DNA of 29,263 nt from PVC group bacterium (GCA_003567005.1 PXBF01000048.1:1-29263); one strand, 5' to 3'. Counted from the stretch's first letter, positions 1,926-17,630 are shown. The notes: generated from the letters alone by a model not told the origin. Made by a program: numbers and translations.

Positions 1926-2960
1926 TTATATGTGACATGAATTGTCGCGTAGGGTGGCCACGGCTTCGTTGCGGGTGGTGATGGGTTTGTTGTATGCGCG
2001 GAACAGTTCTTGCATGCGTTGGTTGCCGAAGTCGAGGTTGTGGCTGACGGAATAGAGGGCGTAGAGGGAGGGATCGGTGAATGGGTGATCGAGGTTCAGC
2101 AGGTTGGAGATGGCGGATATGATGGTGCCATATACGTATCCACACCAGAAGGGGAGTGTGATGCTGCGGAAGGTTTTGCCTGGCAGATAGACATCAGCAA
2201 GGATTCGGTAGAATTGTTCGATGGTGGTGTGTTCGTTGTCGACGATGTTGATTGCCCTGCCGGCAGCTTCCGGGGCCGTTGCGGCAAGCAGGGTGGCGGT
2301 GGCGACGGTGCTGACATGTGCCAGGGGCCAGCGATTGGTTCCGCGCCATTTCCCGAAGTGGATGATACAGGGGGCATGACGTAGGAAGTTGACGATGCGG
2401 GGGGTGAGGGTTTTGTCGCCTTGGCCCCAGACTTGCGCGGGCCGGATGATGCTCCATTTTTCAGGGGGTAATGCGCGTTGAAGCATTTGTTCTGCCCGTA
2501 GCTTGTAAACCGGATACGGGTTACGGGGGCGCGGGTTACATGTCAGCTCTTCTTCCTGTTCGCCGTGATAGTCGCGCAGGCCATACACGTCTGTGGTGGA
2601 GATGAAGACAAACCGTTGGCAGTCCAGGGCGCGACTCATACGCACCAGGTTTTCGACGGCCTCGTAATTCGTTGCGCGAAAGGCACTGCGCCATCCGGTA
2701 TCCGAGGCGCGGGCGGCGCAGTGCACGATTGCGTCAAGTTTGGCTCCGTTTACAGCAAGTGTTTTTCCGATCTGATTACGAAATGTTTCTGTGTCTCGTA
2801 TGTCACCGCGTATATAGGTGATTTGCCCTTGGTGGGGCTTGATTGTTGCTGGGATTGTGCGGTGCACGAGTGCAAGCACGTGCCAGCCGTCGTCCAGGAA
2901 TGTGCGCATGATGTGTTCGCCCACGAATCCTGCTGCACCGGTTATGAAAACATGTTTCAT
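1926..2960 (-). CDS. NAD(P)-dependent epimerase/dehydratase-family (extended SDR) oxidoreductase; candidate 3-keto-sphingoid or ketolipid reductase
   Basis: Rossmann motif MKHVFITGAAGFVGEHI at the chosen start (M35 of the 378-aa ORF). The ATG overlaps the stop of the upstream alpha-oxoamine synthase (ATGA). It is the last gene of the minus-strand operon. Confidence 0.75.
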   Translation of the reverse strand: MKHVFITGAAGFVGEHIMRTFLDDGWHVLALVHRTIPATIKPHQGQITYIRGDIRDTETFRNQIGKTLAVNGAKLDAIVHCAARASDTGWRSAFRATNYEAVENLVRMSRALDCQRFVFISTTDVYGLRDYHGEQEEELTCNPRPRNPYPVYKLRAEQMLQRALPPEKWSIIRPAQVWGQGDKTLTPRIVNFLRHAPCIIHFGKWRGTNRWPLAHVSTVATATLLAATAPEAAGRAINIVDNEHTTIEQFYRILADVYLPGKTFRSITLPFWCGYVYGTIISAISNLLNLDHPFTDPSLYALYSVSHNLDFGNQRMQELFRAYNKPITTRNEAVATLRDNSCHI

Positions 2961-4222
2961 GGGATAAGACCGTATTTTCTGCCGCATTCGGCGAAGATGT
3001 TGAGTGCCTTGTCCATTTGTTCGCGGGTCAAACTGTTCATGATGCTGACTCGCAGGCGGCATTCCTTGCGCCGAACGGCGGGGTAGGTGACCACGTTAGT
3101 AAAGACACCTGCGTGCCGCAAGTCCCGCTGTAATGCGCCCAAGATGCTTTCGTTGCCGACTACCACGGGTAGGATGGCCGATCCGGTGCTGCCGAGTTTG
3201 AAGCCGAGTATTTGCAGATTCTGCTGCATGTAGTTGATATTATTCCACAGTTGTCGGCGTCCGGCAGTGTCGGTCTCGAGCAGTTTGAAAACCTCAATGA
3301 GACCGGCGATGGTTGGAGCAGGGATGCTAGTGGAAAAGAAGTACGTGCGGGCGAAAAAGCGCAGGTAGCGGACCATGGCGGAAGATCCGGCGCAATAGCC
3401 GCCGATCGCGCCGGGTGCCTTGCTCAGGGTTCCGCAGGTGAGATCCACATTGCCTTCGCAGTGAAAATGCTCGATCGTACCGCGGCCGGTCGCCCCAACA
3501 ACACCGAGGCCATGCGCATCATCAACCATAAGCCGGCAGTTGTAGGCTTTGGCCAGTGCAACGATTTGGTCCAGGGGGGCAAGATCGCCGTGCATGGAAA
3601 AGACGCCATCGGTGATAATAAGCCGTCCCTGTTGTTCGGCTGGCAGGGCTTTGAGAATCTTTTCCAGATGTTTCATGTTGTTGTGCATGTAGACTTTGAT
3701 GGTAGCGCCGGACAAGCGGCATCCATCAAAGATCGAGGCGTGATTGGCGGAATCATTGATCACGATATCACCAGGACCGCAGAGTGCGGAAATCACCCCT
3801 ATGTTGCCGGAATAGCCGCAGGGAAACATGATGGCATCTTCCGTTTTGTAGAAGCGGGCAATGCGCTCTTCCAGCTCGCGATGCAGCACGGAGGTACCCG
3901 CGTACAGCGAGACGGCACCCATGCCATAGCCAAATTCGTCGGTTGCCTTCTTGCTGGCCGCAATCACTTGCGGATGTGTTGTGATACCCAGATACGAGTT
4001 CGAGCCCAGCATGATGACATCGTGCTCTTGTCCGTCTTTTTCGCGGATGCCTACCTCGGCATTGGCAGCCCCGGTCAATGGCAGGCCGAGCCCGTCGATG
4101 TAGCCTGGATTGGTTTTGCGGATATAGGCATCGAGCCGCTCGACTTTATGAAAGATGTCATAGCGGCCTTGCTCGGGCACAAAGTCCTCGAAACGCATTT
4201 CCTGTTGATCGGTGTCCATCAA
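2957..4222 (-). CDS. PLP-dependent alpha-oxoamine synthase (serine palmitoyltransferase / KBL / BioF family)
   Basis: 421 aa. PLP lysine motif GTLSKA, LMVDDAHGLG, and glycine-rich GSNSYLG. Overall length and architecture fit Spt-like 2-amino-3-ketoacyl synthases. Start and stop overlap the neighbouring genes. Confidence 0.85.
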   Translation of the reverse strand: MMDTDQQEMRFEDFVPEQGRYDIFHKVERLDAYIRKTNPGYIDGLGLPLTGAANAEVGIREKDGQEHDVIMLGSNSYLGITTHPQVIAASKKATDEFGYGMGAVSLYAGTSVLHRELEERIARFYKTEDAIMFPCGYSGNIGVISALCGPGDIVINDSANHASIFDGCRLSGATIKVYMHNNMKHLEKILKALPAEQQGRLIITDGVFSMHGDLAPLDQIVALAKAYNCRLMVDDAHGLGVVGATGRGTIEHFHCEGNVDLTCGTLSKAPGAIGGYCAGSSAMVRYLRFFARTYFFSTSIPAPTIAGLIEVFKLLETDTAGRRQLWNNINYMQQNLQILGFKLGSTGSAILPVVVGNESILGALQRDLRHAGVFTNVVTYPAVRRKECRLRVSIMNSLTREQMDKALNIFAECGRKYGLIP

Positions 4223-5445
4223 TTGCCTTTCTTTTTGTGATAGCAGCGCAACGAGCGGTTATCGTCACAGTATATGGTGCAAAAATTGCAATTTGTACAG
4301 GCCGACCGGATGTCGGGATCCTGTTTGAGCTTGTTGGGGAAGTCCGGTTCGCAGATTAGCGGGCGGCATAAAGAGATACCATCGAGATTGTATTGCTCGA
4401 TGCATTGCCGGATATCGTTGATATCACGAATGCCGCCGACGGAGAAAACGGGCAGGGAGCAAGCTTGCTTGATGGCGGCGGCGGATGCGGCATTATAGGC
4501 ATGGCTGAAGGGCAGGAAGCGCTTGCGGTAGGTATCCGCACGCAGGCGTTTCCAGAGACCGCGAATGAGGGCAGGGATTTTATTGAACATGGGATTGACG
4601 TTGAGTACCAGATCGACGGGGCATGCCCCACGAATAATATTGAGGGCATATTCCATTGTGCCATAGCTGATTTCCACGGCATCAATACGCAATGGCTCCA
4701 AACGGCGCACAGTCTCGATGGTGTCTTCCTGCCGGATGCCGGGCACACGGTCTTCCGTTGCGCTTAGCTTTACGAGAATCGGATAATTGTGGCCGCAAGT
4801 GTTCTTTACTGCCTGTATGGTGCGTTCGAGAAAGAGGTTGCGATCCTTGCCCCATTGATCTTCGCGGTCATTGGTCCAAGGCGACAAGAATTGGTGGATC
4901 AGATAGCCGTGGGCGGCGTGCAACTGCACGCCATCGAATCCAGCATCCTTGGCACGCTTGGCGGCGTTTCCAAACTGTTGGATGATGCTTTCGATATGCG
5001 GCGTTTGCAGAACATGCGATTTTTCGCGGAAGTAGGAACATGCGCGTCGCGATGCACCATATACTTTGTTTTGGGTGATACGCTTGCGTGTCTGGCGTCC
5101 GGTGTGGGCGAGCTGCATGAATAGACAGGTTTCTGGATGCTGCTGCTTTACATGCTGAACGATGGCGTGCCAGGCGGCTTGTTTTTCGGGGGTATCGATG
5201 CCGCATTGGCGCGGCTGCATGGCGCGGCCCTCCTGCGAGATGTGGACGAACCCGGTGACGATGGTGCCTGTACCGCCAGCCGCGAGATTGGAATAAAGCC
5301 TTGCGAGGGACATCTCTGGGATGCCATCGGAATTTCCCATTCCCTCGTATGTTGCAGAGCGCACAATTCGGTTGGGCAACGTGATGGTACCCAGAGTCAG
5401 TGGGCTGAAGAGCTTTTCTATGGTGTCTTGCGTTGCTTGCTGCAT
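4219..5445 (-). CDS. Old Yellow Enzyme-family NADH:flavin oxidoreductase with C-terminal 4Fe-4S Cys cluster (FadH / 2,4-dienoyl-CoA reductase N-domain type)
   Basis: OYE N-terminus LFSPLTLGTITLPNRIVRSATYEG, HAAHGYLIHQFLSP, and a C-terminal CTNCNFCTIYC (CxxCxxCxxxC) cluster. Start is set at MQQATQD (5443-5445). The 172-codon upstream extension in the six-frame ORF reads through palindromic repeat A and the neighbouring gene and is treated as spurious. Confidence 0.75.
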   Translation of the reverse strand: MQQATQDTIEKLFSPLTLGTITLPNRIVRSATYEGMGNSDGIPEMSLARLYSNLAAGGTGTIVTGFVHISQEGRAMQPRQCGIDTPEKQAAWHAIVQHVKQQHPETCLFMQLAHTGRQTRKRITQNKVYGASRRACSYFREKSHVLQTPHIESIIQQFGNAAKRAKDAGFDGVQLHAAHGYLIHQFLSPWTNDREDQWGKDRNLFLERTIQAVKNTCGHNYPILVKLSATEDRVPGIRQEDTIETVRRLEPLRIDAVEISYGTMEYALNIIRGACPVDLVLNVNPMFNKIPALIRGLWKRLRADTYRKRFLPFSHAYNAASAAAIKQACSLPVFSVGGIRDINDIRQCIEQYNLDGISLCRPLICEPDFPNKLKQDPDIRSACTNCNFCTIYCDDNRSLRCYHKKKGN

Positions 5446-5446
5446 A

Positions 5447-5530
5447 TCTGCGGCTCGGCGGGGACGTCTCGCCCTACCTTCCGAGTTTGAAGGCATAGGG
5501 TAGGGCGAGCCGTCCTCGGCGAGCCGTGGT
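5447..5530. repeat. GC-rich palindromic intergenic repeat, copy A (about 29-bp stem, 19-nt loop)
   Basis: gcggctcggcggggacgtctcgccctacc / loop ttccgagtttgaaggcata / ggtagggcgagccgtcctcggcgagccg. The arms are reverse complements at about 25/29 positions. The copy lies between the PurM-like gene stop and the OYE gene start. Confidence 0.8.
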
Positions 5531-5579
5531 GGCGTAGTTACGCTTGGAGAATTCCGAGAAAGTTCTTTGATTGGTGCAT

Positions 5580-6572
5580 TCATGTTTTGGCGAGGTATTG
5601 TTGGGTGTATTCCTGTACGGCTGTGACATACGGTTCGAGTGCTGGGTATGCACGCGGGCAAGGGGGCGGCTCTGGAATAGGGCGATGCATTCCGGTGCTC
5701 CGGCTTGCATATATGCCCGGATCCGGCGACGGGATGATATCTGCAATCCGGGTGAATCCGGCTGCTTTCAGCATTTCGGTTTCCTCGTCGGTTAGTGCTG
5801 GTGTGGCAAAGAGTACTTCGTACTCGCCGGCACCGCCCACGATTGCGGCAAGTGCTTGCTCGCCAGCCGTTGCTGCGAAGGCCTGTACGGTTGCGGCGAG
5901 CGGGATATTTGCGAGTTGCAGGTTGATGCGCCAGTCGGGGTTGACGGTCTGCAGGCACCACAAGGCATCCAGGAGCCCGCCGCTGGTATCGATGCCGGCT
6001 GTGGCATAGGGGCGGATCAGGGACGTTTGCTTTGTGCGCAATTCAAATGCCGGAGTAGGCGCACCGGTAAGTACGGCGAGATTGGCATCACCAACCTCGC
6101 CGGTAATCCAAAGGTGTCGGGAGTCTGGACCGAAGCGCCGCAGGATTGGGGCCGGTGCGGTGACTGGACCTGCGGCAAAACCTGTATAGCGCCATGTCGG
6201 ACAGGTGGCCATATCTCCACCGAGTAAAAAGCATTGGGCGGCTTGCAACGTTGCGCTTATTCCATCGGTCAGTTGATCTGCAAACGCGGTGTCCGCATTC
6301 GAGGGGAGTGCGAGCGTATGCAGGAAGAATCGCGGTTCGGCCCCGGTTGCCAGAAGGTCGCTGATGGTGGCGGTGACCAGGTTTGCCCCAAGCTGGCGGG
6401 GATTCTCGGATGTGAAGTGGTCTTCTTCCGGGGTAAACTCATCCATGGTTAAAGCCCAGGTCTGTCCGGCGATGTCAACGAGTTCGGCATCGCTTTCGAA
6501 TAGCGCGTTTTGCTGTTGCGGGTCGCGTTTGAATTTCCCTGCGAATGAGCGGATAAAATCGTATTCGGTCAT
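5580..6572 (-). CDS. PurM-like (AIR synthase-related) ATP-dependent enzyme; ThiL/HypE/SelD superfamily
   Basis: 330 aa. The N-terminal pattern DAELVDIAGQTWALTMDEFTPEEDHF matches the PurM-like N-domain (D-x-A ... TTD ... HF). It also has GGDMA. The ATG overlaps the stop of the upstream kinase gene. Confidence 0.65.
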   Translation of the reverse strand: MTEYDFIRSFAGKFKRDPQQQNALFESDAELVDIAGQTWALTMDEFTPEEDHFTSENPRQLGANLVTATISDLLATGAEPRFFLHTLALPSNADTAFADQLTDGISATLQAAQCFLLGGDMATCPTWRYTGFAAGPVTAPAPILRRFGPDSRHLWITGEVGDANLAVLTGAPTPAFELRTKQTSLIRPYATAGIDTSGGLLDALWCLQTVNPDWRINLQLANIPLAATVQAFAATAGEQALAAIVGGAGEYEVLFATPALTDEETEMLKAAGFTRIADIIPSPDPGIYASRSTGMHRPIPEPPPCPRAYPALEPYVTAVQEYTQQYLAKT

Positions 6573-7621
6573 TACGTGTCTTCCTGTCTCTTTCCTTCCT
6601 CTGCGGCTCGGCGGGGACGCCTCGCCCTACCGGTCGGAGCTGAAGGTGTTGGATAGGGCGAGCCGTCCTTGGCGAGCTGTGGCACGTCTGGAAAGGACTT
6701 GGCATTACATACGCCTCCACAGATCAAGTTTAGCGCTTGTGGCAGCAAGTCAATCTGAATTGGCAGCCAGCCGCGTGGGTCGCCATCGAACTCGACGGCT
6801 TGCGACGTGTTGGCTTCCAGTCGGACGGATGTACCGGTTCGCATAAATACTGCCGGTGATGCTGTAGCGCGTCCGGTGTAGAAGCCCGGGAAAATGCGGC
6901 AGAGGCCTAGTGGCGTGCTGTCGTGAATGGCAACGACGGCAAGTTGTCCGTCAGTTGGCTGCAAGTCTATATCCAGTTTCAATCCTGAAGCAATATAAGG
7001 GTTTTTGAGAATGGCGATATGATTGAAGGATGTGATAGGTAATATTTCATTGTCCAGAACCAGCTTGCAGGGCACGGATTTACTGGTGCATATGGCGCGC
7101 ATGACGCCGGCCCCGGTTCCGAGTGTATCGCCGAGCCATCTGCGGTGACGGTTGGCAAAGGCAGCCACCGTTGCGCCAAGGCCGATGTTGCAACTGCAGC
7201 CAAAGTGTGCGTTGACAGGGGTGGTATCCACGGACGGTAGATATTGTATGCGGCATGCGTCCACGGCGCGTATCTTGCCGTGTAGAAGGGTTTGCAGTGC
7301 CTTCTGTGGATCGACCGGAATGTTGTGGAATCGACAGAAGTCCGGGCTCGTCCCTGCATACAGTACCCCCATGACGAGTTCGGGGTTGCCGGAGAGCAGG
7401 ATGCCGTCGAGAACTTCATTGATGGTTCCGTCGCCACCGACTGCCACAACCGTGCAGGCGCCTCGCGTCTGGCGCGCTACTTCGCGGGCATCGCCCGCCC
7501 CGGTGGTTATGACGGTTTCCAGATCAATGCTGGCTTTACGCAATGCCGCCAGCCAGGGGTCCCAGCGTTTGCGCCCTTTGCCGGAACGCGCTGACGGATT
7601 CATGACCAGCTTCATTTTCAC
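6572..7621 (-). CDS. Diacylglycerol kinase catalytic-domain family lipid kinase (YegS / sphingosine-ceramide kinase-like)
   Basis: 349 aa. DAGK_cat signature VVAVGGDGTINEV and an N-terminal MKLVMNPSARSGKG. The last roughly 35 codons are encoded by palindromic repeat B. The true C-terminus is therefore uncertain. Confidence 0.75.
   Translation of the reverse strand: MKMKLVMNPSARSGKGRKRWDPWLAALRKASIDLETVITTGAGDAREVARQTRGACTVVAVGGDGTINEVLDGILLSGNPELVMGVLYAGTSPDFCRFHNIPVDPQKALQTLLHGKIRAVDACRIQYLPSVDTTPVNAHFGCSCNIGLGATVAAFANRHRRWLGDTLGTGAGVMRAICTSKSVPCKLVLDNEILPITSFNHIAILKNPYIASGLKLDIDLQPTDGQLAVVAIHDSTPLGLCRIFPGFYTGRATASPAVFMRTGTSVRLEANTSQAVEFDGDPRGWLPIQIDLLPQALNLICGGVCNAKSFPDVPQLAKDGSPYPTPSAPTGRARRPRRAAEEGKRQEDT
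6600..6682. repeat. GC-rich palindromic repeat, copy B, embedded in-frame at the 3-prime end of the lipid kinase CDS
   Basis: About 85% identical to copy A over about 85 bp (gcggctcggcggggacgcctcgccctacc ... tagggcgagccgtccttggcgagctg). Same orientation as copy A. Confidence 0.8.
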
Positions 7622-8904
7622 GGGTATATTCCCAGTTTCTCGTAGAGGGTTGTGGGTTCACCGCGCTTCCAGTCCTTGATAAGTTCCTGCGTGATGTGCC
7701 AGGGCAACGGCGTGCGTTCGAGCTTATGTTCGGTGAATAGCTTGTGAATGGCAGCGGCTTGCGTGCAGCAAAGCCAGTCGGCGCATGGGATGTCGAAGTA
7801 GCTGCGCATCCGTTGAAAGATGACGGAGAACGGTTCTTCGTTCACGTTGCCAAATGAGATGTTGAGAAATTCGCAGGGTTGTACTTCGCCGCTGGCCCCG
7901 ATGTAGAAGCGGTCGACCCCGCCCGCCGTGCATCCCAGCACGTGGCGTTGTTCTTCGAACACCTGGGCGGCGAGTGATGGATAATCGTGCATGCGGGAGC
8001 TGTTATAGCGTACATGTTCCTCTTGGATGCGGGCGACGAGGTCGTTTTCTGTCTGCATGTTGGTTTCGCGTCCGAGCCATGCGCCGGATGGCTTGGGATG
8101 AATGAGCTGCACGTAATCGCAATCCAGCTCGCGCGTGAAATCCATCAGCTTGTCCAGTCCGCCCTGCCGGATTTCGTCTTCGGAGAGAACCGAGTTGCAG
8201 GTTGCCACGAGATTAAGGTCCCTGCATGCGCGCACGGCATCGCAGGCAATATCGAAAGATCCTTGCTTGCGTGTGAAGCTATCATGCACGGCCGGGTCAG
8301 TGGAGTGGATTGAGACCATGAGTCCGAAAAGTCCGGCTGCTTTCAATTCTTCCAGCATGCCTGGTTTGATATTGGCACCCGTGGTATTGATCCAGATCTC
8401 GCTGCGTGCATCCAGTGCCTGTACGAGCTTCAGGAGCCGTGGGTAGCGGATGAATGGTTCGCCGCCTTCTATATCGAACATGGCTACCCCGGCATCGCGT
8501 ACCTGCAGGGCGGTTTGAATCATGGCGTCTTCGTCGATGTCGACGGCCGGATCGTTTTTCTGGTAGCAGTGCTCGCAGTCGTACGAGCAGGCCTTGGTCA
8601 TGGAATATACAATCGTTGTGGGACCGGGCGGTGTTTTCAGCAGCTTACTTTCGATGGCATAAAAGAAAGCGGGCGAGGGATAGGCAGGCAGGTAAAGGTG
8701 TAATTTGTAGCCATTGAAGACACGCACCGGCTTGTTGTGACGGAAGACCAGCAGCAACTGCAGGGCGCGTCGCAGAAAGCGGCAATATGCCAATGGGGAG
8801 GAAAAGTGTTTTGGGCGCAGTGCGTAGTAAAACGGAATATGAACGATAATACGCACGTATAGCAGCAGTTTTCGGAATCCTGTCAGGAAATGGGCATTTT
8901 TCAT
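7618..8904 (-). CDS. Radical SAM enzyme with N-terminal hydrophobic/membrane-associated extension and C-terminal Cys-rich (SPASM/twitch-like) region
   Basis: 428 aa. CxxxCxxC radical SAM motif CSYDCEHC after about 100 hydrophobic/basic residues. The downstream GGE-like FDIEGGEP fits SAM binding. The C-terminal Cys run is GCTAGG...PCEFLN...CADWLCC. ATGA overlap with the kinase gene. Confidence 0.8.
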   Translation of the reverse strand: MKNAHFLTGFRKLLLYVRIIVHIPFYYALRPKHFSSPLAYCRFLRRALQLLLVFRHNKPVRVFNGYKLHLYLPAYPSPAFFYAIESKLLKTPPGPTTIVYSMTKACSYDCEHCYQKNDPAVDIDEDAMIQTALQVRDAGVAMFDIEGGEPFIRYPRLLKLVQALDARSEIWINTTGANIKPGMLEELKAAGLFGLMVSIHSTDPAVHDSFTRKQGSFDIACDAVRACRDLNLVATCNSVLSEDEIRQGGLDKLMDFTRELDCDYVQLIHPKPSGAWLGRETNMQTENDLVARIQEEHVRYNSSRMHDYPSLAAQVFEEQRHVLGCTAGGVDRFYIGASGEVQPCEFLNISFGNVNEEPFSVIFQRMRSYFDIPCADWLCCTQAAAIHKLFTEHKLERTPLPWHITQELIKDWKRGEPTTLYEKLGIYP

Positions 8905-9872
8905 GATTTGGCATCCTTGTATTGGTCGAACAGAAATCCGATAAACACATAGCTGGCACTGAAGAGATACAGGGCCAAGGTTCCATTAAAGATGGCAATC
9001 AGGGCGATTTGCCCTGCGACACAAGCGCGGATATTGGTTGCCAGACTGAAGTAGGTGCGGTCGCCGACCGGATTATGGAAGAATAGCAGTGCCGTCCAGA
9101 GTTGTAGGAAGAGGGTCATTACCGCGCAGAATACGAAGTCGCGCACAAAGAGAATGTCACGCAGCGGCAGCCATCCGGCCCGTGCGAACAGCAGGAACAG
9201 CAACGTTGGCAGAAACGCGCCGATCAATCCGGCATAACGTGCCACATTCAAGCCGTAGCGCACGACAAATGTATTTTTTCCGGCAGCCTTGTCGCCCTCA
9301 TAGTCCTTGAAGTAGGTGTAGAACGTCATGAGTCCGTTCATGAAGGCCACAAGGATAAATCCGCTAATGCGGTTGCTGGTAAACACAGGAGTCGGCATGG
9401 GCCCGGCAGCCAGGAAACCGTAGACGGTACACATGGCGATGGACAGCCCGAAAATTGCGTTGCCGGTAAGCGACCAGGCTTTCGCATACTCATACAGAAT
9501 GTTCAGCAAAACGCCGAGGATGACCGGTACTACAGACCAAGGGTTCAGCAACCAGGAAATCGCCACCACGCCTGCCATGAGCACGCCGGATACAATCAGG
9601 GCATTGCGCGGATTCAGTTCGCCGGTAACCATGGGGCGGTTGGGGGCGTTGATGCGGTCTTCCGGCAGCCCTAGGTAATCGTTGATAATCTGGTTAATGC
9701 CCCAGCTCAGGAAAAGCATGATCAACAAAAGGGATCCGCGTGCGTGGCTGTAATGATCCGGCATGGCGAACTGGTAGAAGGATACGCCAACCCAGCCGGC
9801 AATGCCGGTAATGAAAGCATAGTAAAGCCGCATTGATTTGATATAAGCCTTCCAAAAGCTGATTGTTAACAT
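8901..9872 (-). CDS. UbiA-superfamily membrane prenyltransferase
   Basis: 323 aa and polytopic. First Asp-rich motif NDYLGLPEDRINAPNRP, second motif FKDYEGDKAAGKNT. It has 8-9 predicted TM helices. Confidence 0.75.
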   Translation of the reverse strand: MLTISFWKAYIKSMRLYYAFITGIAGWVGVSFYQFAMPDHYSHARGSLLLIMLFLSWGINQIINDYLGLPEDRINAPNRPMVTGELNPRNALIVSGVLMAGVVAISWLLNPWSVVPVILGVLLNILYEYAKAWSLTGNAIFGLSIAMCTVYGFLAAGPMPTPVFTSNRISGFILVAFMNGLMTFYTYFKDYEGDKAAGKNTFVVRYGLNVARYAGLIGAFLPTLLFLLFARAGWLPLRDILFVRDFVFCAVMTLFLQLWTALLFFHNPVGDRTYFSLATNIRACVAGQIALIAIFNGTLALYLFSASYVFIGFLFDQYKDAKS

Positions 9873-9889
9873 GCGTTGCTCCCCTTTTT

Positions 9890-11743
9890 TTATTCTATTG
9901 TCATATCTGCGGAAAAGGTGTCGGTACCATTGCCTGAGGTGAAGTAGCGTTTGCTTACGGAAAATCTGATATTTCGGGCATTCTGGATTGCATCGGGGGC
10001 AAGGCGGAATTGGTAGGATCCGGGTGCTTTGCGGGTGAGTTCGATGTCGGCGTATTTTTGTTCGTCGATTTGGACCGTGATGGCATCGGGGGATACGAGG
10101 GTATTCCCTCTATTGGTGCGCACTTCCAGCCGCCCGGTCAGGCTGCCATCGTCGGCTGTCGTTACGGATGTAAGCGATGGCTGCAAGGTATGCGGGAAGG
10201 CGATGGCTTGGTAGAAGAACTCGATGGGGAAGGCGCGGTAGGCGGGGCCGAGAAAGCTGTCTTCGAGATAGCGATGCGTGGCGTTGCCGAATGTTTCGCG
10301 ATAGATGAAGTGCATGCGGTCGTCAATTTTCTTGTAGCCCACGATTACACAGGCATGTACGCCTTTGGCGCGGATGCCGCTTTGCGGGTTGCCGCGCCGG
10401 TCGCGTTGCATGTGTTGGGCATAGAGAGGTCCCCAGGCATGCAAGGCGGCAATCAATAGCTGTTCCTTTTCCTTGGTGCTGCGTTCGCGAGCACTCCATT
10501 CAGCGATCTGGAAATACGCGTCATCATTGTCCTCATAGCGGCGTTCATCCCTGCGGCGTGTGCGGCGTGCCATCAGGTTGCGGTCGATGACCATCAACAA
10601 AGGGTGCTCATCCATAGCAAACGGGTTTTCTCCGTGTTCGTATTGCATATGATCTGGGACGAGCGGATCGGAGACGATCCCTGCATTGGTTTCTGATAGG
10701 ATGCGGGCATATCCGCGCGGGGAATAGGGGATGGGTTCACGGGTGACGCGGTCGCGCCCGACGAGTTTGAAGTTGCCGCGTGCATGGAGGTGCAGGCCAG
10801 TCAGGTTCCCAAAGCCCATGACGGTGCGCGCCACAATGCCGGCCTCTTCCCTGGCGCGTTCAAAGTAGATGCTTTCCAGATGGCGGGGGTTGATGCCGTA
10901 TTCCTGCTGTCCGCCTGCGGCATTGCGATAGGGGGAAAGTGTGCCACCGGTGGTAACGATCCACCAATCGGCCAGATAGCTTGCTGCGATTGCGAGACAT
11001 TTGGAGGTGGCCGTGCGGCGCCCGAGCGAATGACGCATTCGCACGCCGGCTTCTCGCCCGATTTCTCGATTGAATGCCTCGACGTTTTCGCGACGTTCCT
11101 CCTGCGTTTTCTTTGGCAGATCGAGCACGCCGTCGACCAGGTAAGCGTCGGGTGCATGCGGATTAATCGGAATCCCGGTCGTGAATTGCGTAACGGGCGG
11201 AATCAATTCGTTCAGTCGAGGGATCGCATTTACCGTTGGGGCTCTTTGCCATTGTCGTGCTGAAACACGAAAAAGTGGTTCGTGTTGAGGGGTGAACATG
11301 ATCGGGCTTTGGATCGAGCCGTCTTCTGGATCCACGGCAAAGAATCCGCCAATCTCGCGTTTCATATTCAGTCCAACGAGCCAGCGTGCAACACGCTCGG
11401 TTCCGTCGGGTGCCATAACCATGACCGGTCTGGCTACGGAGGTTTCCGGAAAACGTTGCAGGACTTTTCGGTAATCCTGCCAGTAGGTATGCGGAGGCGT
11501 GTCATTCGTCTTGTGATCCGCTTTTGCCCGTTCAGCGGCGATATGATCGGCAATGATGGCACGTGCTGCTTCGGCTGGTATCGCTGCCTCCAAGGTCGGC
11601 AATTCGAGAAATATATTTAGGCGTTGATTCTTGATGATCCCGGTATCAGCAGCTGAAACCATCATTCGAGCCCCGATGGCAAGCAGGATACATGCAATGA
11701 TCAACGTTTTGAAAACTGCCTGGGGTGCATTCCGCATTTGCAT
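9890..11743 (-). CDS. Large secreted/membrane-anchored hypothetical protein with possible papain-like (Cys/His) fold
   Basis: 617 aa. N-terminal signal/anchor MQMRNAPQAVFKTLIIACILLAIGARMMVSAA. Candidate catalytic Cys (TSKCLAIAASYLADWW) and His (GVHACVIVGYKK). No confident family assignment can be made from sequence alone. Confidence 0.5.
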   Translation of the reverse strand: MQMRNAPQAVFKTLIIACILLAIGARMMVSAADTGIIKNQRLNIFLELPTLEAAIPAEAARAIIADHIAAERAKADHKTNDTPPHTYWQDYRKVLQRFPETSVARPVMVMAPDGTERVARWLVGLNMKREIGGFFAVDPEDGSIQSPIMFTPQHEPLFRVSARQWQRAPTVNAIPRLNELIPPVTQFTTGIPINPHAPDAYLVDGVLDLPKKTQEERRENVEAFNREIGREAGVRMRHSLGRRTATSKCLAIAASYLADWWIVTTGGTLSPYRNAAGGQQEYGINPRHLESIYFERAREEAGIVARTVMGFGNLTGLHLHARGNFKLVGRDRVTREPIPYSPRGYARILSETNAGIVSDPLVPDHMQYEHGENPFAMDEHPLLMVIDRNLMARRTRRRDERRYEDNDDAYFQIAEWSARERSTKEKEQLLIAALHAWGPLYAQHMQRDRRGNPQSGIRAKGVHACVIVGYKKIDDRMHFIYRETFGNATHRYLEDSFLGPAYRAFPIEFFYQAIAFPHTLQPSLTSVTTADDGSLTGRLEVRTNRGNTLVSPDAITVQIDEQKYADIELTRKAPGSYQFRLAPDAIQNARNIRFSVSKRYFTSGNGTDTFSADMTIE

Positions 11744-11806
11744 GATATTTTCTCTAATAGGATATCATTCAGGAAAGATTGGTGCCTTATTCTTTTTATA
11801 TTTGTG

Positions 11807-12346
11807 CTACTCGCAGAGGTAGGCGAGCAGTTCTTCGCGGTTGGGGTGATTCTGTAGTTCGTCTTTCAGCTTATCGATGCGATGGAGTACATCTGCGCCG
11901 AAACGTTCTTCCATGCGTGTGCGGCGACTTTGCTGCAGCTCGGTATCGCGCACGGTGCGTTGCCAGGATTGCGTAAAGACGCGGTTGAGTTCATCGTGAA
12001 AGTTCCGGGCACGCAGGGCTTCCCATTCTCCGGCATCCAGCCAGATGCCGCCGGTGATGGATCGGTCGATCATGAATGGGAATCCATGACCGACTTTGTA
12101 GCGCGTCATGATGGTGCCGCTTTCGGGACAGATGCGGGCTTGGGGCGGCATATCGCTCGGTTCGGGTTGTTCGTGTTCGTCTGATTGGGGAATGTGCGGT
12201 GTGATCGCAGGTTGCTGACTGAGCCAGCGCATATAGCAGTTGGAGGGGATATAGTAGCCACCGCTCTCTTCGCAACGATAAGCCATCAGGCCATCTTCCA
12301 GTTCTGTCAATGTCATGGGCTTGCGAGATCCGACTGGGCTTTTCAT
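11807..12346 (-). CDS. Zinc-ribbon (zf-TFIIB-like) domain protein
   Basis: Start is chosen at MKSPVGS, which has a GGAGAAGG SD 6 nt upstream. There are two degenerate ribbon repeats (YRCEESGGYY..., RICPESGTIM...GGIWLDAGEWEAL). The GxWxDxGE motif is typical of zf-TFIIB-like ribbons. It is the first gene of the minus-strand operon. Confidence 0.5.
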   Translation of the reverse strand: MKSPVGSRKPMTLTELEDGLMAYRCEESGGYYIPSNCYMRWLSQQPAITPHIPQSDEHEQPEPSDMPPQARICPESGTIMTRYKVGHGFPFMIDRSITGGIWLDAGEWEALRARNFHDELNRVFTQSWQRTVRDTELQQSRRTRMEERFGADVLHRIDKLKDELQNHPNREELLAYLCE

Positions 12347-12719
12347 GCTACCTTCTCCCGGTTCTGTTTTCTGGGTGCGCGTTTTGTTTTGTTTTGCGTG
12401 TAAGGTACTGCGAACGTTGGCGCATTGGCTAGTAAAAAGTGGGTATGTCGAGGGCGTCGAGAGAATCGAGGGACTCGTTGTTGCGCCGATTTGTGCGGTA
12501 TAGGGGCTCTGCAATTTTTAGGGACGGAAAAGTTGGACAGGATGCTTTTATTCTGGCTGTTTTTCAGAACGGTTGGCGGGGCCATTCCTGGGGCTCATGA
12601 TAATGTTTGGTGTCGTTGTTTGGGGTGCCTGCCTGATTGCAAACTTTTGTGTGAATTGTAATGGCGCGGATTTCGTGCATGCGGGATGATGTGCACCGTC
12701 GAGAAACGGGAGAGTGACA

Positions 12720-13220
12720 ATGGAGTCTCACGAAATCATGCGGCGTGCAATCGGGAATGTAGGTGTCAAGGCTGTCGCAGCCGATATGGCACTGTCTTCC
12801 TCGCTGGTCTACAAGTGGTGTCAGCCCAAAGGGGATGACAACAGCGGCGCGGATAATCCCTTAGACCGGATTGCCGAACTTTGTCAAATCACGGGCGATG
12901 TATCCCCGATTGTCTGGCTGTGTGAGCAAGTGAATGGCTTCTTTGTTGAGAACGTGACCCCGGATGCGGCAGCAGCAGATGTTCGGGCCTTATCCATGAC
13001 GCAACGAATACTCAAGGAGTTTTCGGAGATGCTGGATATGGTTTCGCGGAGTATTGCGCATGAGAATGGGATTGATCCTGACGAGGCGCGTGCCATCCGC
13101 GTGGAGTGGGAGGATCTGAAGCGTGTTTCCGAACAGTTTGTGCTGGGCTGCGAAATGGGGAGTTATCTTCCGGATACGTACAAGCAACGACAACGAGTAA
13201 AACAAGGAGAGAAGGCATGA
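12720..13220 (+). CDS. Small HTH DNA-binding protein (phage CII-like helix-turn-helix)
   Basis: VGVKAVAADMALSSSLVYKWCQ resembles the lambda CII HTH (AEAVGVDKSQISRWKRD). GGGAGAG SD 7 nt upstream of the ATG at 12720. The stop overlaps the pspA start (ATGA). Confidence 0.45.
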   Translation: MESHEIMRRAIGNVGVKAVAADMALSSSLVYKWCQPKGDDNSGADNPLDRIAELCQITGDVSPIVWLCEQVNGFFVENVTPDAAAADVRALSMTQRILKEFSEMLDMVSRSIAHENGIDPDEARAIRVEWEDLKRVSEQFVLGCEMGSYLPDTYKQRQRVKQGEKA

Positions 13221-13897
13221 GCATCATGGCACGTCTAAAACGGGTAACAGTGGGTCGGATGGAGGCATTTCTTTCATCTGTTGAAGATCCGGAGACGGTA
13301 TTTCCGCAACTTGTGCGTGAGATGGAAGAGCAGGTACGTTTGGCAACGGACGCCGAGGCCAAGGCTATGGCGGCTGTGAAGTCCGCCGAGCGGACGCGCG
13401 ACCAGGCATCAGCCAAGCTGGAAAAGATGACAGATGGTGCGCGTTCCGCATTGGAGCAGGGTGACGAAGCCACGGCTCGCGAGGCCATTGCGGCCCAAAT
13501 CCAGCTTGAAGATGAGGTGGCGCGCTGTGCGGATGCCGTAGCGAATGCGAATCAATCGTACAGTGATGCGCACGAAACGCGCGTGCTCACGCAAAAGCAG
13601 TTGGATGAAGTACGTGCGAAGAAGGATGAAATTTTGAATCGCGCTCGCGTGGTGCGGTCGCAGGAAAAAATTCAGCGCACGGTGCAGGGGCCGGCGGCTT
13701 CTACTGGCAGCATTCTGGATGCGGTGGCGCGCATGGAGTCTCAGGTAGAAGAGCGTGAAGCTGGTCTTGCTGTACGTAAGGAGTTGGGACAGACGGGGGC
13801 CGGTGGTACAGCCTCGCTGGAGCAACGGATCGAGGATTTGCACAAGCAGGCTGAGATTGATCGCCGGATGGCAGCATTAAAAGGAAAACAATCATAG
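13217..13897 (+). CDS. pspA: PspA/IM30 (Vipp1) family membrane-stress protein, paralog 1
   Basis: The N-terminus MSIMARLKRVTVGRMEAFLSSVEDPETVFPQLVREMEEQV matches the PspA consensus (MGIFSRF...AEDPEKML...IRDMED). It is a coiled-coil protein with an AAGGAGAGAAGG SD. Confidence 0.85.
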   Translation: MSIMARLKRVTVGRMEAFLSSVEDPETVFPQLVREMEEQVRLATDAEAKAMAAVKSAERTRDQASAKLEKMTDGARSALEQGDEATAREAIAAQIQLEDEVARCADAVANANQSYSDAHETRVLTQKQLDEVRAKKDEILNRARVVRSQEKIQRTVQGPAASTGSILDAVARMESQVEEREAGLAVRKELGQTGAGGTASLEQRIEDLHKQAEIDRRMAALKGKQS

Positions 13898-13906
13898 CGG
13901 AGTATC

Positions 13907-14581
13907 ATGGCTATACTTGATCGTATTCATAGAATCGCCCGCGCGAATCTGGCGCAGTTGCTGGATCGCGTGGAGTCGCCCGAGGAGGAAATCACAAGCC
14001 ACATTCGTGCGCTGGAAGATGCGGCGCGCGAGGCCAAGGATGCCTTGGCGGGTTTTGCGGTTACCGTCAAGCGGCAGGAACAAGCCAACGAGGCGTTGCG
14101 CAAGTCATGCGGGGAATGGCAAGCACGCGCCGAGGCTGCGATTGAAGCTGGCGATGAAGCGACGGCTCGTCGTGCGTTGGGAGAACGCCTGAAAGCCGAG
14201 GAGCGCCTGGCAGCGTTCGAGCCCGTATTGGAGGGGCGTCGGAAAACGTATGACGAGTTGCGTGACGATCTGGTACGGATTCACGACCAACTGCATGAGG
14301 CACGGGCCAAGCTCATGGACCTGAGAGCCCGTAAGCTGGCAGCCGATGCGGAGAAGTCGATGTCGCAGCGGGTCGCCACATTCGACCGTGGAACACCGGC
14401 AGGAATGGAACGGTTGGAGGATGAAGTTCTTGCTTCGGAAGCTTCGGCTGAAATCGAGCGTGATATGCGTGGGGTACTGACGCCGTTATCCGAAAAGCTG
14501 GAGCGAGATGTGCAGGAGCGTAAAGTGGACAGCGCATTGGAGGCATTGAAGGCGCGCCTTGGAAAGGATGCCAAGGAATGA
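13907..14581 (+). CDS. PspA/IM30 family protein, paralog 2
   Basis: MAILDRIHRIARANLAQLLDRVESPEEEITSHIRALEDA has the same family signature. 224 aa, coiled coil. Confidence 0.85.
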   Translation: MAILDRIHRIARANLAQLLDRVESPEEEITSHIRALEDAAREAKDALAGFAVTVKRQEQANEALRKSCGEWQARAEAAIEAGDEATARRALGERLKAEERLAAFEPVLEGRRKTYDELRDDLVRIHDQLHEARAKLMDLRARKLAADAEKSMSQRVATFDRGTPAGMERLEDEVLASEASAEIERDMRGVLTPLSEKLERDVQERKVDSALEALKARLGKDAKE

Positions 14582-15225
14582 TCGCCAATCTTGTGCAGTT
14601 ATGGCATGCCAGCGTGCATATATCGAACTTGTTCTCGACGCTTCTGCTGTTGCTTGTGGTGGTGTACTGGATTGTCGTGCTGTGTGGTTTGCTGGATGTG
14701 GACGCACTGGATCTTGATGTGTGCGAGCTGGAAGCCGACGGTATCGAGGTTGGCTCGGCACACGGAAGTGCCGAAGGCTTGCTGGAGTATCTGAATCTGC
14801 GGCGCGTACCGCTTTCGATTTTGGTGAGCGTGTTTGCGATCAGTCTTTGGTTATTAGGGGTTCTGGCCAACCATTACCTGCATGGTACGAGCTCGGGACT
14901 TCTAGGGCTCGCAATCTTTGTGCCGAACGTGCTGGTGAGTGTACATGTGGCAAAGTTTGTGACGATGCCGCTGGTTCCTTTGTTTCGGAGCATGCATGCG
15001 GATATTGCAGAAGTACGCGATATGACGGGGACGCGTGTACGCATCACCTCGTCCTCGGCAGACGAGACGTTCGGGCAAGCAGAGGTTTTGTCGGGCGATA
15101 ACGGGCCATCGATTGTGGTGAGTGTAAGAACGGACGGGGGTGTTTTGCCGAAGGGTAGTGAAGCGGTTGTTGTGCGTGAGTTAGGGGACAAGAGTGTATA
15201 TGTGGTGAGTAAACTGGAGGTGTAG
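14578..15225 (+). CDS. YqiJ-like inner-membrane protein (DUF1449 / NfeD-like C-terminal OB domain)
   Basis: Two to three TM helices followed by a C-terminal soluble beta domain (GTRVRITSSSADETFGQAEVLSGDNGPSIVVSV). It is coupled (ATGA) to pspA-2 and sits directly upstream of the flotillin gene, as in yqiJK operons. Confidence 0.6.
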   Translation: MIANLVQLWHASVHISNLFSTLLLLLVVVYWIVVLCGLLDVDALDLDVCELEADGIEVGSAHGSAEGLLEYLNLRRVPLSILVSVFAISLWLLGVLANHYLHGTSSGLLGLAIFVPNVLVSVHVAKFVTMPLVPLFRSMHADIAEVRDMTGTRVRITSSSADETFGQAEVLSGDNGPSIVVSVRTDGGVLPKGSEAVVVRELGDKSVYVVSKLEV

Positions 15226-15228
15226 GTT

Positions 15229-17223
15229 ATGTTGGAGTCTGTATTGATGGTTGTGTTTGTTGTGCTGGCATTGGTGATTGCCGGTACAGTGGTATTGTTT
15301 TCCTCATGCTATAAAAAGGTCGAGCAGGGATCAGCGATTGTCCGCAATGGTGTAGGCGGAACAAAGGTTAGCTTTGTGGGTATGATGGTGATTCCGATTC
15401 TCCAGCGCATGGAGTTAATGGATATTTCCGTCAAGCGTATCGAGATCAACCGTTCGTGTTCGGATGGATTGATCTGTCGCGATAATATGCGTGCGGATGT
15501 GAAGGTTGCGTTCTTTGTACGAGTGAACAAAACGCCGCAGGACGTCCTCAAGGTTGCGCAGTCGCTGGGCTGTAATCGGGGATCCGATCCTGGGGCCTTG
15601 GTGGAGTTTTTTGATGCCAAGTTTTCCGAGGCGTTGAAAACGGTTGGTAAGCAGTTCGATTTTGTGGATCTGTATACGAACCGTGAGCAATTCAAGGAAG
15701 AGATCATCAAGGTGATCGGCACGGATTTGAATGGTTACATCTTGGATGATGCAGCCATCGATTATCTGGAGCAAACTCGTCTGGAGCATTTGGATCCGAA
15801 CAACATTCTTGATTCCGAGGGTATCAAGAAAATTGTGGATTTGACGGCGAATCAGGCGGTTCTGGCCAACGATATTTCGCGGAACAAGGAAAAGACGATC
15901 AAGAAGCAAGACGTCGAGGCGCGCGAGGCCATTCTGGAGCTGGAGCGCCAGCAGGTGGACGCCGAGCAGAAGCAGCAACGCGAGATTACGGAAGTGTCGG
16001 CTCGTGAGCAGGCGCAAGGTGCGGTTGTGCAGGAAGAGGAACGTTTGCGTTCCGAGCGCGTTCGGATCGACACGGCACAGGAAATTGCGGTGGCGGAAGA
16101 AAACCGGATGCGGCAGACGATCGTGGCGCAGAAGAACAAGGAGCGTACAGAGGCCGTCGAGATCGAACGAGTCGAGAAGGATCGTGGTTTGGAACGTGTC
16201 GAGCGCGAACGCGTTGTCTCGTTGAGCGAGATTGAGAAAGAAAAGGCACTCGAGACCGAGAAGAAGACCATGCAGGAAGTGTTGCGCGAGCGCGTGACCG
16301 TGGAACGCACGGTCGTGCAGGAAGAAGAGAAGATCAAGGATACGCGCGAGTTTGCCACGGCCGAGCGTGCCCGCGAAGTTGCCATGACCCGCGCCGAAGA
16401 GCAGGGCAAGGCGGGCAAGATCAAGGCGACGCTGGATGCGGAAGCCAGGCGAGATGCGGCGAAGCATCTGGCCGAGGAGCGGATTATCGAGGCACAAGCG
16501 GCGCGTGATGCATCCGAGCGTGAAGCTGATGCCCGCAAGATTCTGGCCGATGCCGAGGCTCAGGAAGCTGCTGTGACCGGTATGGCAGAGGCACGTGTGC
16601 TGGAAGCCAAAGCGCATGCCACGGAGAATTTCGGTAAGGCAGAAGCTGCCGTAATCCGCGAGAAGGCGATTGCCGAGTCCGAAGGCATCGAGAAGAAAGC
16701 CGCAGCCATGAAAGAATTCGATGGTGTGGGACGCGAGCACGAAGAATTCAAGCTGCAGTTGCGTAAGGACCTGGATCTGGAACTGGCAGAAGTGGAGGCC
16801 CGCAAGGATATTGCGCGTGAGCAGGCGATGCTCGTTGGCGAGGCACTCAAATCGGCCAAGATCGATATTGTTGGTGGCGAGGCGACCTTCTTCGAAAAGA
16901 TTGTCAACTCCGTTAGCAATGGTAAATCGGTTGATAGTTTGGTCAAGAGCAGCAATGTATTGACGGATATTTCCAACACGCTGTTTACGGGGGATCCAGA
17001 AGCCTTCACAAACCAGATCAAGACCTTCGCGGGTCGGTTCGGTATTACCAGTGAAGATCTGAAGAACCTGACCGTTTCTGCGCTCTTGGCGCGCATGACG
17101 TCCATGGCAGATGACAAGGATACCCTGGCGGCGCTGGGTCGGTTGTCGGATGCAGCCAAGCAGCTGGATCTCGGCGGGAAGAAGGTGGCATCGCTGATGC
17201 CGCAGCTAACCCAGAAAGGATAA
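15229..17223 (+). CDS. yqiK: Flotillin-like SPFH/band-7 protein (YqiK type) with about 400-aa E/A/R-rich coiled coil
   Basis: N-terminal TM helix, SPFH core (IVRNGVGGTKVSFVGMMVIPILQRMELMDISVKRIEI), a long EA-repeat coiled coil, and a C-terminal flotillin tail. GGAGGTG SD. Confidence 0.85.
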   Translation: MLESVLMVVFVVLALVIAGTVVLFSSCYKKVEQGSAIVRNGVGGTKVSFVGMMVIPILQRMELMDISVKRIEINRSCSDGLICRDNMRADVKVAFFVRVNKTPQDVLKVAQSLGCNRGSDPGALVEFFDAKFSEALKTVGKQFDFVDLYTNREQFKEEIIKVIGTDLNGYILDDAAIDYLEQTRLEHLDPNNILDSEGIKKIVDLTANQAVLANDISRNKEKTIKKQDVEAREAILELERQQVDAEQKQQREITEVSAREQAQGAVVQEEERLRSERVRIDTAQEIAVAEENRMRQTIVAQKNKERTEAVEIERVEKDRGLERVERERVVSLSEIEKEKALETEKKTMQEVLRERVTVERTVVQEEEKIKDTREFATAERAREVAMTRAEEQGKAGKIKATLDAEARRDAAKHLAEERIIEAQAARDASEREADARKILADAEAQEAAVTGMAEARVLEAKAHATENFGKAEAAVIREKAIAESEGIEKKAAAMKEFDGVGREHEEFKLQLRKDLDLELAEVEARKDIAREQAMLVGEALKSAKIDIVGGEATFFEKIVNSVSNGKSVDSLVKSSNVLTDISNTLFTGDPEAFTNQIKTFAGRFGITSEDLKNLTVSALLARMTSMADDKDTLAALGRLSDAAKQLDLGGKKVASLMPQLTQKG

Positions 17224-17600: not shown

Positions 17601-17630
17601 CAGGTTATATAGTAGCAAAAGGTTTGAGCG

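Follow-up and report, generated by a model that had tools for sequence, protein, structure and literature searches.

The core of bacterial sphingolipid synthesis, as in Caulobacter and Bacteroides, consists of serine palmitoyltransferase (Spt) with a dedicated acyl carrier protein (ACP), a reductase (CerR or KDS reductase) and a ceramide kinase of the DAGK family. In archaea, digeranylgeranylglyceryl phosphate synthase (DGGGPS; structures 6m31 and 7bpu) adds the second hydrophobic chain to a lipid whose neighboring carbon carries a phosphate. The capnine (sulfonolipid) system with CapB and the reductase CapC and the CqsA/CAI-1 system both combine an alpha-oxoamine synthase (AOS) with a dehydrogenase or reductase whose substrate is a lipid-like aminoketone. 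The archaeal tetraether synthase Tes/GDGT-MAS and the bacterial Mss, which are radical SAM enzymes acting on lipid tails, also rank among the closest known systems. Here we analyze a gene cluster in a DNA stretch of 29,263 nucleotides from a PVC group bacterium (GCA_003567005.1 PXBF01000048.1:1-29263); this whole stretch is called the window. The cluster encodes a UbiA prenyltransferase, a radical SAM enzyme (rSAM), a DAGK-type lipid kinase, a ThiL-like ATPase of the PurM family (AIRS), an OYE-type ene-reductase, an AOS and an extended short-chain dehydrogenase/reductase (SDR). These seven genes (positions 1926-9872) form a real and strongly conserved module, which is apparently uncharacterized. 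We consider it about an even bet (probability about 0.5) that they are one module for the synthesis of a phosphorylated, prenylated long-chain amino-alcohol lipid, a hybrid of a sphingoid base and an isoprenoid.

The initial annotation of this DNA had suggested examining whether UbiA, rSAM and Spt homologs occur together in related genomes. They do: the seven genes occur together far more often than expected by chance and are colinear across phyla. When one genome of each GTDB species was scanned, 80 loci were obtained, nearly all of which are labeled as metagenome-assembled genomes (MAGs). The presence of the genes was scored by tblastn of the nine proteins of the window cluster against all 85 related loci, and counted in the 44 non-redundant related loci with enough flanking sequence. 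DAGK was found in 43 of these loci, UbiA and AOS in 42 each, AIRS in 38, SDR in 36 and OYE in 32. All seven genes, or all except OYE, are present in 32 of the 44 loci, and 31 of these 32 keep the order and strand of the window. The common order, UbiA-rSAM-DAGK-AIRS-OYE-AOS-SDR, is also that of the first neighborhoods looked at. Some lineages can dispense with AIRS and OYE; AIRS is absent from Omnitrophota-type and some Ozemobacter-type clusters that retain DAGK and UbiA. DAGK and AIRS always adjoin one another in the same order. An all-against-all clustering of every open reading frame (ORF) in the loci did not reveal a further widely shared family.

The identity to the window proteins across phyla is unusually high for such a distance (UbiA 60-83%, rSAM 52-73%, AOS 55-68%). 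Homologs of the rSAM that are 59-73% identical occur in Kiritimatiellota, Planctomycetota, Verrucomicrobiota, Lentisphaeria, Sumerlaeia and Armatimonadota. The scan across GTDB species added carriers from Elusimicrobiota, Riflebacteria/Ozemobacter, Omnitrophota, Auribacterota, Acidobacteriota, Gemmatimonadales and Zixibacteria; further carriers are one Desulfovibrio MAG, Bdellovibrionales (Bdellovibrionota) and an alphaproteobacterial lineage, and Kiritimatiellia and Lentisphaerota were also counted among the carrier groups. Altogether, the seven-gene module is spread over at least 12 phyla. The nearest relatives are Kiritimatiellia. The closest relative (locus L086) has a UbiA that is 94% and an rSAM that is 91% identical to the window proteins.

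The locus had been described as a nine-gene operon. Nine minus-strand ORFs do exist, but the two upstream ones, with 179 and 617 amino acids, have no homologs in any of the 85 related loci, L086 included (tblastn). The conserved unit therefore comprises seven genes and not nine, and the two upstream ORFs are lineage-specific neighbors outside of the conserved module.

Natural gene fusions also tie some of the enzymes together. When 1.84 billion representatives were scanned in full with HMMER, fusion proteins of UbiA and rSAM (UbiA::rSAM; 721-739 aa) were detected, namely P0362 (L089 283-2502) and P0363 (L090 6219-8384). In L089 the fusion gene is followed by DAGK-AIRS-OYE-AOS-SDR, and the cluster is otherwise identical to that of the window. 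A different fusion, SDR::rSAM (787 aa), is encoded in Omnitrophota (L083 7924-10287) within the reduced cluster AOS-DAGK-[SDR::rSAM]-UbiA; the layout in a locus from Planctomycetia (L082) is similar. Because the rSAM is fused to UbiA in one case and to the SDR in the other, it presumably works together with the prenyltransferase and the reductase.

Variant clusters contain additional genes. The order in Riflebacteria is UbiA-OYE-MMPL-KS-ACP-DH-like-AOS-SDR-rSAM-DAGK-AIRS, where KS is a ketosynthase and the dehydratase-like (DH-like) protein is similar to PKS_DH; in Bdellovibrionales it is UbiA-ACP-AOS-SDR-rSAM-DAGK-AIRS-OYE-MMPL. These accessories are sporadic: a MMPL transporter and an ACP were each found in 5 loci, a ketosynthase in 4 and a MarR-type regulator in 6. 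MMPL proteins are known to export envelope lipids. In L062 and L064 the ACP gene lies directly 5' of AOS, which is the arrangement of bacterial Spt systems; this neighborhood provides indirect support for an acyl-ACP as donor. A polyprenyl-diphosphate synthase is not co-conserved in the clustered neighborhoods.

Two further observations were made on the surroundings of the related clusters. The MarR-like regulator, which is absent from the window, is encoded directly upstream of UbiA in L012 (5715-6230), L023, L056, L078, L082 and L085, which belong to different lineages; the module may be under its native control. Near the cluster in L001 (18209-21290), a metagenome chromosome of 8.2 Mb, and in L002 (505-3759), a MAG of Armatimonadota, there are genes for a PFL-like glycyl-radical enzyme and a GFO_IDH_MocA oxidoreductase. 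These two genomes are unrelated, and the shared neighbors may reflect coincidence or shared mobility.

The enzyme families of the seven ORFs were upheld by profile searches with Pfam and NCBIfam, and the earlier identification of UbiA, the DAGK-like kinase, the Fe-S OYE, the alpha-oxoamine synthase and the epimerase-fold reductase was borne out. None of the proteins reached the curated equivalog cutoff of an NCBIfam model.

UbiA is the only integral membrane protein among the seven enzymes, with multiple transmembrane segments in the hydropathy profile. The Pfam UbiA match is clear (E 6e-27), and the NCBIfam matches are all far below their cutoffs; the best ones are a prenyltransferase model and the DGGGPS models (62 bits versus a cutoff of 296 and 58 versus 353), and ChlG/BchG models were matched as well. 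The sole match in a sequence search of the PDB is the DGGGPS of M. jannaschii (6m31, E 3e-10). A Foldseek search with an AF2 model (pLDDT 88) returned 6m31 and 7bpu at the top. By sequence and predicted fold, the enzyme is thus nearest to archaeal DGGGP synthase, although the identity is only 19-20%. Membership in this family is not suggested by the equivalog scores; furthermore, the canonical NDxxDxxxD motif is missing, and the partners GGGPS and glycerol-1-phosphate dehydrogenase (G1PDH) are not found in the clustered neighborhoods. The first Asp-rich motif is altered to NDYLGLPEDRINAPNRP (NDYLGLPEDR). The family signature is ND[YFW]xGLxEDRxNAPxRP, and most of the orthologs have Gly at the position of the middle Asp. 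The second motif has the form D..GD...G..T, as in ChlG and DGGGPS. The models for MqnP gave scores of only 24-38 bits versus cutoffs of 375-430, and Mqn genes are not nearby. The JGI pipeline labels bacterial orthologs (P0245 and others) as 'geranylgeranylglycerol-phosphate geranylgeranyltransferase' (DGGGPS), and these labels could inflate the counts of archaeal-type lipid genes in Bacteria. Bacterial homologs of DGGGPS have been noted before, and their role was considered unclear (PMC6431249).

The rSAM had been called a membrane enzyme. The radical SAM assignment holds (Pfam), but the protein is devoid of any transmembrane-like segment; the maximum in a 19-residue Kyte-Doolittle window is 1.19. 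The cluster motif CX3CX2C is formed by C106, C110 and C113, and together with a partial TIM barrel and a C-terminal set of cysteines for auxiliary clusters (C325, C344, C379 and C380) it places the enzyme in the SPASM/twitch class. An N-terminal domain of about 95 amino acids is conserved and specific to the family. The nearest families are NirJ/AhbD, BlsE, MoaA and viperin, which have small-molecule or nucleotide substrates. More distant relatives of the rSAM (25-34% identity) carry a fused class-I SAM methyltransferase domain, and one protein of 1467 aa combines the rSAM with a long extension ending in DUF362. These proteins (P0407, P0442, P0492 and P0372) are other uncharacterized branches of the same rSAM family.

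The AOS matches Aminotran_1_2 (E 4e-54) and contains the motifs GTLSKA, NHAS and DDAH in its translation. The catalytic residues (the Lys for pyridoxal phosphate, His and Asp) are hence present; these are generic to AOS enzymes and not specific for Spt. The placement of the protein was based on a comparison of bit scores. It scored below the cutoff of the models for the BioF/Kbl subfamily (379 versus 535), KBL (375 versus 460 and 330 versus 493) and BioF (358 versus 426), and also below those for Spt (CFB 351 versus 640, Beta 332 versus 500, Alpha 287 versus 670). In the PDB the best scores were obtained with the Thermus enzyme ThAOS (276 bits), SPT (266) and KBL (254), followed by CapB (226), ALAS (191), BioF (187) and CqsA (127). 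On these scores the AOS appears about equally distant from SPT, KBL and Thermus AOS. A firm position in the BioF/KBL group, which would speak against a lipid pathway, was not found, and bio genes are absent from the neighborhoods examined.

The SDR is an NAD(P)-dependent reductase with an epimerase fold and has the motifs GxxGxxG and YxxxK. Its best NCBIfam match is OleD, a 2-alkyl-3-oxoalkanoate reductase for long-chain 3-oxo substrates, with 84 bits versus a cutoff of 580; in the PDB it has only weak matches, to sugar-nucleotide SDRs. A reading of AOS and SDR as KBL plus threonine dehydrogenase was rejected on account of these weak matches. The OYE is an FMN ene-reductase of the FadH/OYE type (Oxidored_FMN, E 2e-50) with PDB matches to YqjM-type enzymes and FadH (1ps9). 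The matches to the NCBIfam models for FadH/OYE, BaiCD and BilR are all below cutoff. A C-terminal CxxCxxCxxxC motif of the 4Fe-4S type is present in 35 of 37 orthologs. The protein has no FAD/NAD(P)H domain, and with its 408 amino acids it matches just the N-terminal parts of models of about 640 aa. A ceramide synthase of the bCerS/GNAT type is encoded neither by the nine window genes nor by the gene families shared between the 80 loci. The cluster in the window also has no ACP, as the initial annotation had stated for both proteins.

The lipid kinase is soluble and many of its orthologs are slightly longer than 300 amino acids. DAGK_cat and YegS_C domains, a GGDGT motif in the translation and best PDB matches to DgkB, YegS and BmrU assign it to the YegS/DgkB/BmrU superfamily, in which it has no assigned ortholog group because its score with TIGR00147 (YegS/Rv2252/BmrU lipid kinase) is 91 bits versus a cutoff of 119. 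Sphingosine and ceramide kinases are members of the same DAGK superfamily. The adjoining protein was initially annotated as a PurM-like ATPase; the AIRS domain was recovered, and the description can be refined to ThiL-like. Its best PDB match is ThiL (2yxz, E 4e-11), and the score with the thiL model TIGR01379 is 116 bits versus a cutoff of 184, which is too low for a ThiL. An alignment of the family shows the conserved motifs DTSGG and GGAGEYE and a C-terminal PPPCPR. There is no thiamine context: no riboswitch, that for thiamine pyrophosphate included, was detected in the window or in six related loci, and the genetic setting is that of a lipid-type operon.

Together, the enzymes suggest the following pathway, in which the substrates, the order of the steps and the product are our proposal. 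The AOS would condense an amino acid, most likely serine, with a fatty acyl thioester to a 2-amino-3-keto long-chain base. Where present, the OYE could serve as an optional tailoring enzyme and saturate a C=C bond conjugated to the ketone, and the extended SDR would reduce the ketone to the alcohol. The DAGK-family kinase would then phosphorylate the long-chain base; the ThiL-like enzyme, in those lineages that have it, might add a second phosphoryl group or otherwise activate the phosphate with ATP. The DGGGPS-like UbiA is predicted to transfer a polyprenyl chain; the acceptor would be an O or N nucleophile beside the phosphate-bearing carbon. This chain would be the second hydrophobic tail and play the role of the N-acyl chain in ceramide, which would explain why a ceramide synthase is not needed. 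The rSAM, in physical association with UbiA and the SDR, may abstract hydrogen from an unactivated lipid carbon in an oxygen-independent manner, with cross-linking, cyclization or dehydrogenation as possible outcomes. In some lineages the MMPL transporter would export the product.

A full-text literature search on UbiA, radical SAM, Spt/AOS, DAGK, ThiL and OYE in combination with the phyla found no description of this gene combination, in agreement with the initial annotation, which did not recognize it as a described pathway. The same annotation had proposed an unusual lipid pathway that is not canonical ceramide synthesis. The synteny, the fusions and the variants with ACP, KS, DH-like protein and MMPL agree with this proposal, while its extent (seven genes) and the membrane location of the rSAM had to be corrected. 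The chance that the product represents a new class of lipids is substantial. A specific structure can be put forward more tentatively: in this case, uncultivated bacteria of >12 phyla, known from metagenome bins, would make an undescribed class of lipids in which a sphingoid-type amino-alcohol phosphate carries an ether- or amine-linked isoprenoid second tail, added by the DGGGPS-like enzyme, and is cross-linked, cyclized or desaturated by the rSAM. In chemical terms, such a lipid would be a hybrid between sphingolipids and lipids of the archaeal type.

Several observations weigh against a lipid product of this kind. With six of the seven enzymes predicted as soluble, the pathway may also build a small soluble head group and add the prenyl chain only in the last step. 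The amino acid and acyl substrates of the AOS are not fixed by its scores, which are equidistant from SPT, KBL and ThAOS. In structural comparisons the rSAM is closest to maturases of ribosomally synthesized and post-translationally modified peptides (RiPPs) and to nucleotide-acting enzymes, and not to lipid enzymes. Motif 1 of UbiA lacks the canonical middle Asp, so that the donor chemistry may differ from that of DGGGPS. The AIRS protein has DTSGG in the place of the DISDG motif of ThiL and is thus not necessarily a phosphate kinase. The window version of the cluster has neither an ACP nor a polyprenyl-diphosphate synthase. Finally, none of the retrieved locus records is labeled as a cultured organism.

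A soluble head group would be expected if the module made a prenylated small-molecule cofactor or signal, with a polar head from an amino acid and a short acyl-CoA to which UbiA adds a membrane anchor in the last step, as in the synthesis of quinones and chlorophyll. The AOS indeed scores with the KBL and BioF/Kbl models as well as with those for Spt, the families nearest to the rSAM act on small molecules or nucleotides, UbiA also matches the ChlG/BchG models, and its conservation of 60-83% across phyla is like that of housekeeping cofactor enzymes. The six proteins without transmembrane segments fit this idea too; their solubility does not discriminate, however, because bacterial Spt and sphingoid kinases are also soluble. 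Against this idea speak the kinase, which belongs to a lipid-kinase family, and the variant clusters with ACP, KS, DH-like protein and a MMPL exporter. Furthermore, enzymes that form rings or aromatic precursors, as well as riboswitches, are missing from the window and the loci examined, and no known cofactor pathway emerges from the neighboring genes (for MqnP 38 bits versus 420; no biotin genes). We judge a cofactor or signal to be unlikely, though plausible. A tetrapyrrole pathway, with an ALAS-like AOS, a ChlG-like UbiA, a NirJ/AhbD-like rSAM and a BilR-like OYE, was considered on the grounds of matches to these models and rejected; the scores are far below cutoff, and the accessories are ACP, KS and MMPL.

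The constant neighborhood of DAGK and AIRS also invites a scenario of prenol salvage. Here the two kinases would convert a polyprenol such as phytol or geranylgeraniol into the diphosphate donor, which UbiA would move onto the unphosphorylated amino alcohol from AOS and SDR. ThiL converts a monophosphate to a diphosphate, and a monophosphate-forming kinase, a ThiL-like enzyme and a diphosphate-using UbiA are chemically self-consistent; the lack of a co-conserved polyprenyl-diphosphate synthase would be accounted for as well. This scenario is nevertheless improbable, with AIRS missing from clusters that keep both DAGK and UbiA, and with a DTSGG motif that differs from that of ThiL; to our knowledge, prenol kinases belong to other families. 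It is even less probable that the locus is an ordinary operon for sphingolipid or ceramide phosphate next to unrelated UbiA, rSAM, OYE and PurM-like genes. An AOS, an epimerase-fold reductase and a DAGK-family kinase do make up the recognized sphingoid core, and in variant clusters an ACP is found beside the AOS. The seven genes, however, travel together across phyla in fixed order, fusions join the rSAM to UbiA and to the SDR, the conserved neighborhoods have no GNAT-type ceramide synthase, and the Spt scores are far below the cutoffs; we therefore disfavor this explanation strongly. Similarly disfavored, and hardly credible, are genuine archaeal-type synthesis of glycerol ether lipids with a real DGGGP synthase and a RiPP or other peptide-modifying rSAM system. 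The proximity of UbiA to DGGGPS is offset by its low scores (62/296 and 58/353), the altered Asp motif and the absence of GGGPS and G1P dehydrogenase from the neighborhoods examined, and no small precursor-peptide ORF is conserved in the clustered loci.

If the proposed prenylated amino-alcohol lipid is correct, the module stands for a widespread and conserved pathway for an undescribed membrane lipid in the PVC phyla, Armatimonadota, Elusimicrobiota, Omnitrophota, Riflebacteria and Bdellovibrionota. A prenyl chain instead of an N-acyl chain would be a third way to provide a sphingoid base with its second tail, and the rSAM would represent a new family of radical SAM enzymes that act on lipids and are found naturally fused to their partners. 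With about 8 kb, the seven genes are compact. The product would be a candidate biomarker for carriers in sediments, digesters and guts, and orphan lipids in sediments could derive from it. The bacterial family of DGGGPS-like UbiA proteins, which is now mislabeled by pipelines, would gain a function; the 'DGGGPS homologs' of this family that surveys count among the archaeal lipid genes of Bacteria would then belong to this pathway. This bears on the debate about the 'lipid divide' (PMC6431249).

The gene starts were re-derived from the sequence. All nine ORFs are encoded on the minus strand and follow one another head-to-tail between positions 1926 and 12346 (Table 1).

Table 1. Positions of the ORFs and of the repeat copies in the window.
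Feature	Position	Strand	Remarks
179-aa ORF ('zinc ribbon' of the initial annotation)	11807-12346	-	no Pfam/NCBIfam match
617-aa ORF	9890-11743	-	N-terminal signal/anchor; no Pfam/NCBIfam match
UbiA, 323 aa	8901-9872	-	Pfam UbiA
rSAM, 428 aa	7618-8904	-	Pfam Radical_SAM and weak SPASM match
DAGK-type lipid kinase, 349 aa	6572-7621	-	Pfam DAGK_cat and YegS_C
AIRS (ThiL-like PurM-family ATPase), 330 aa	5580-6572	-	Pfam AIRS
OYE, 408 aa	4219-5445	-	Pfam Oxidored_FMN; ATG start at 5445 read from sequence
AOS, 420 aa	2957-4219	-	Pfam Aminotran_1_2
Extended SDR, 344 aa	1926-2960	-	Pfam Epimerase and 3Beta_HSD
83-nt GC-rich palindromic repeat, copy 1	5447-5529	unstranded	fills AIRS/OYE intergenic gap
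83-nt GC-rich palindromic repeat, copy 2	6600-6682	unstranded	within 3' end of DAGK ORF

Start and stop codons overlap by 1-4 nt at five of the eight junctions, as had been stated for most of them. The overlap is 4 nt between UbiA and rSAM (ATGA), rSAM and DAGK (GTGA) and AOS and SDR, and 1 nt between DAGK and AIRS and between OYE and AOS. The remaining junctions have gaps of 63 nt (179-aa to 617-aa ORF), 17 nt (617-aa ORF to UbiA) and 134 nt (AIRS to OYE). A scan of the operon for promoters and terminators was uninformative, with sites rarer than in shuffled controls. The 179-aa ORF had been regarded as a zinc-ribbon protein; it contains just 4 Cys and matches no family, and this description was not confirmed. 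The 617-aa protein had been called a secreted Cys/His protein. A signal- or anchor-like N-terminus, the single transmembrane-like segment of the protein, is present, but with 3 Cys (0.5%) and 18 His (2.9%) it is not rich in these residues.

A search for direct and inverted repeats detected a palindromic element in the operon. Its two copies are 83% identical and have stems of 28 nt; the predicted RNA hairpins have folding energies of -50 kcal/mol (copy 1, z-score -6.2) and -40 kcal/mol (copy 2). The final 45 or so codons of the window DAGK ORF run through copy 2. The kinase from L086 has 304 aa, overlaps AIRS by 4 nt and lacks the repeat copy between the two genes; this identifies the tail of the window kinase as a repeat insertion. 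The L086 contig stops before the AIRS/OYE junction. The repeat looks like a REP/MITE-like element, and it might act as an mRNA stabilizer or attenuator.

At the head of the minus-strand genes, a gene with a weak match to Phage_CP76 (CII-like regulator; 12714-13220) is divergent from the 179-aa ORF. It is followed by a plus-strand block (13220-22907) with two tandem PspA/IM30 genes, a YqiJ-like membrane protein, a 664-aa protein without a family match and a 1758-aa protein with DUF3686, DUF7902 and an AAA ATPase domain; the block looks like a membrane-stress or PspA-associated system. An adjacent pair of Hcp-like (T6SS_HCP) genes on the minus strand (22958-24372) is not accompanied by other type VI secretion genes in the window. 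Two paralogs of the MgtE magnesium transporter are located near the contig ends (524-1888 and 26578-28005).

A comparison with the known systems shows which features the module shares with them and which it does not. With the bacterial sphingolipid core it has in common an AOS followed by an epimerase-fold reductase and a DAGK_cat kinase in the same operon, and, in variant clusters, an ACP gene immediately before that for the AOS. It differs in that it has no ceramide synthase, that its AOS is under every Spt cutoff and that it is obligatorily tied to UbiA and rSAM, which are fused in some lineages, and in most cases to a ThiL-like ATPase and an Fe-S ene-reductase as well. Archaeal DGGGPS is the closest solved structure to UbiA by sequence and fold; unlike in archaea, there are no GGGPS/G1PDH partners, and the partner genes point to an amino-alcohol rather than a glycerol acceptor. 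The module shares the pairing of an AOS with a reductase with the capnine and CqsA/CAI-1 systems. CapB is a significant PDB match to the AOS, but the module has no cysteate synthase; CqsA is the most distant match. Both of these systems are devoid of UbiA, rSAM and kinases. ThiL, finally, is the best NCBIfam and PDB match of the AIRS protein and has N-terminal Asp/Glu motifs in common with it, whereas the C-terminal PPPCPR is unique to the AIRS protein, which is found outside of any thiamine context.

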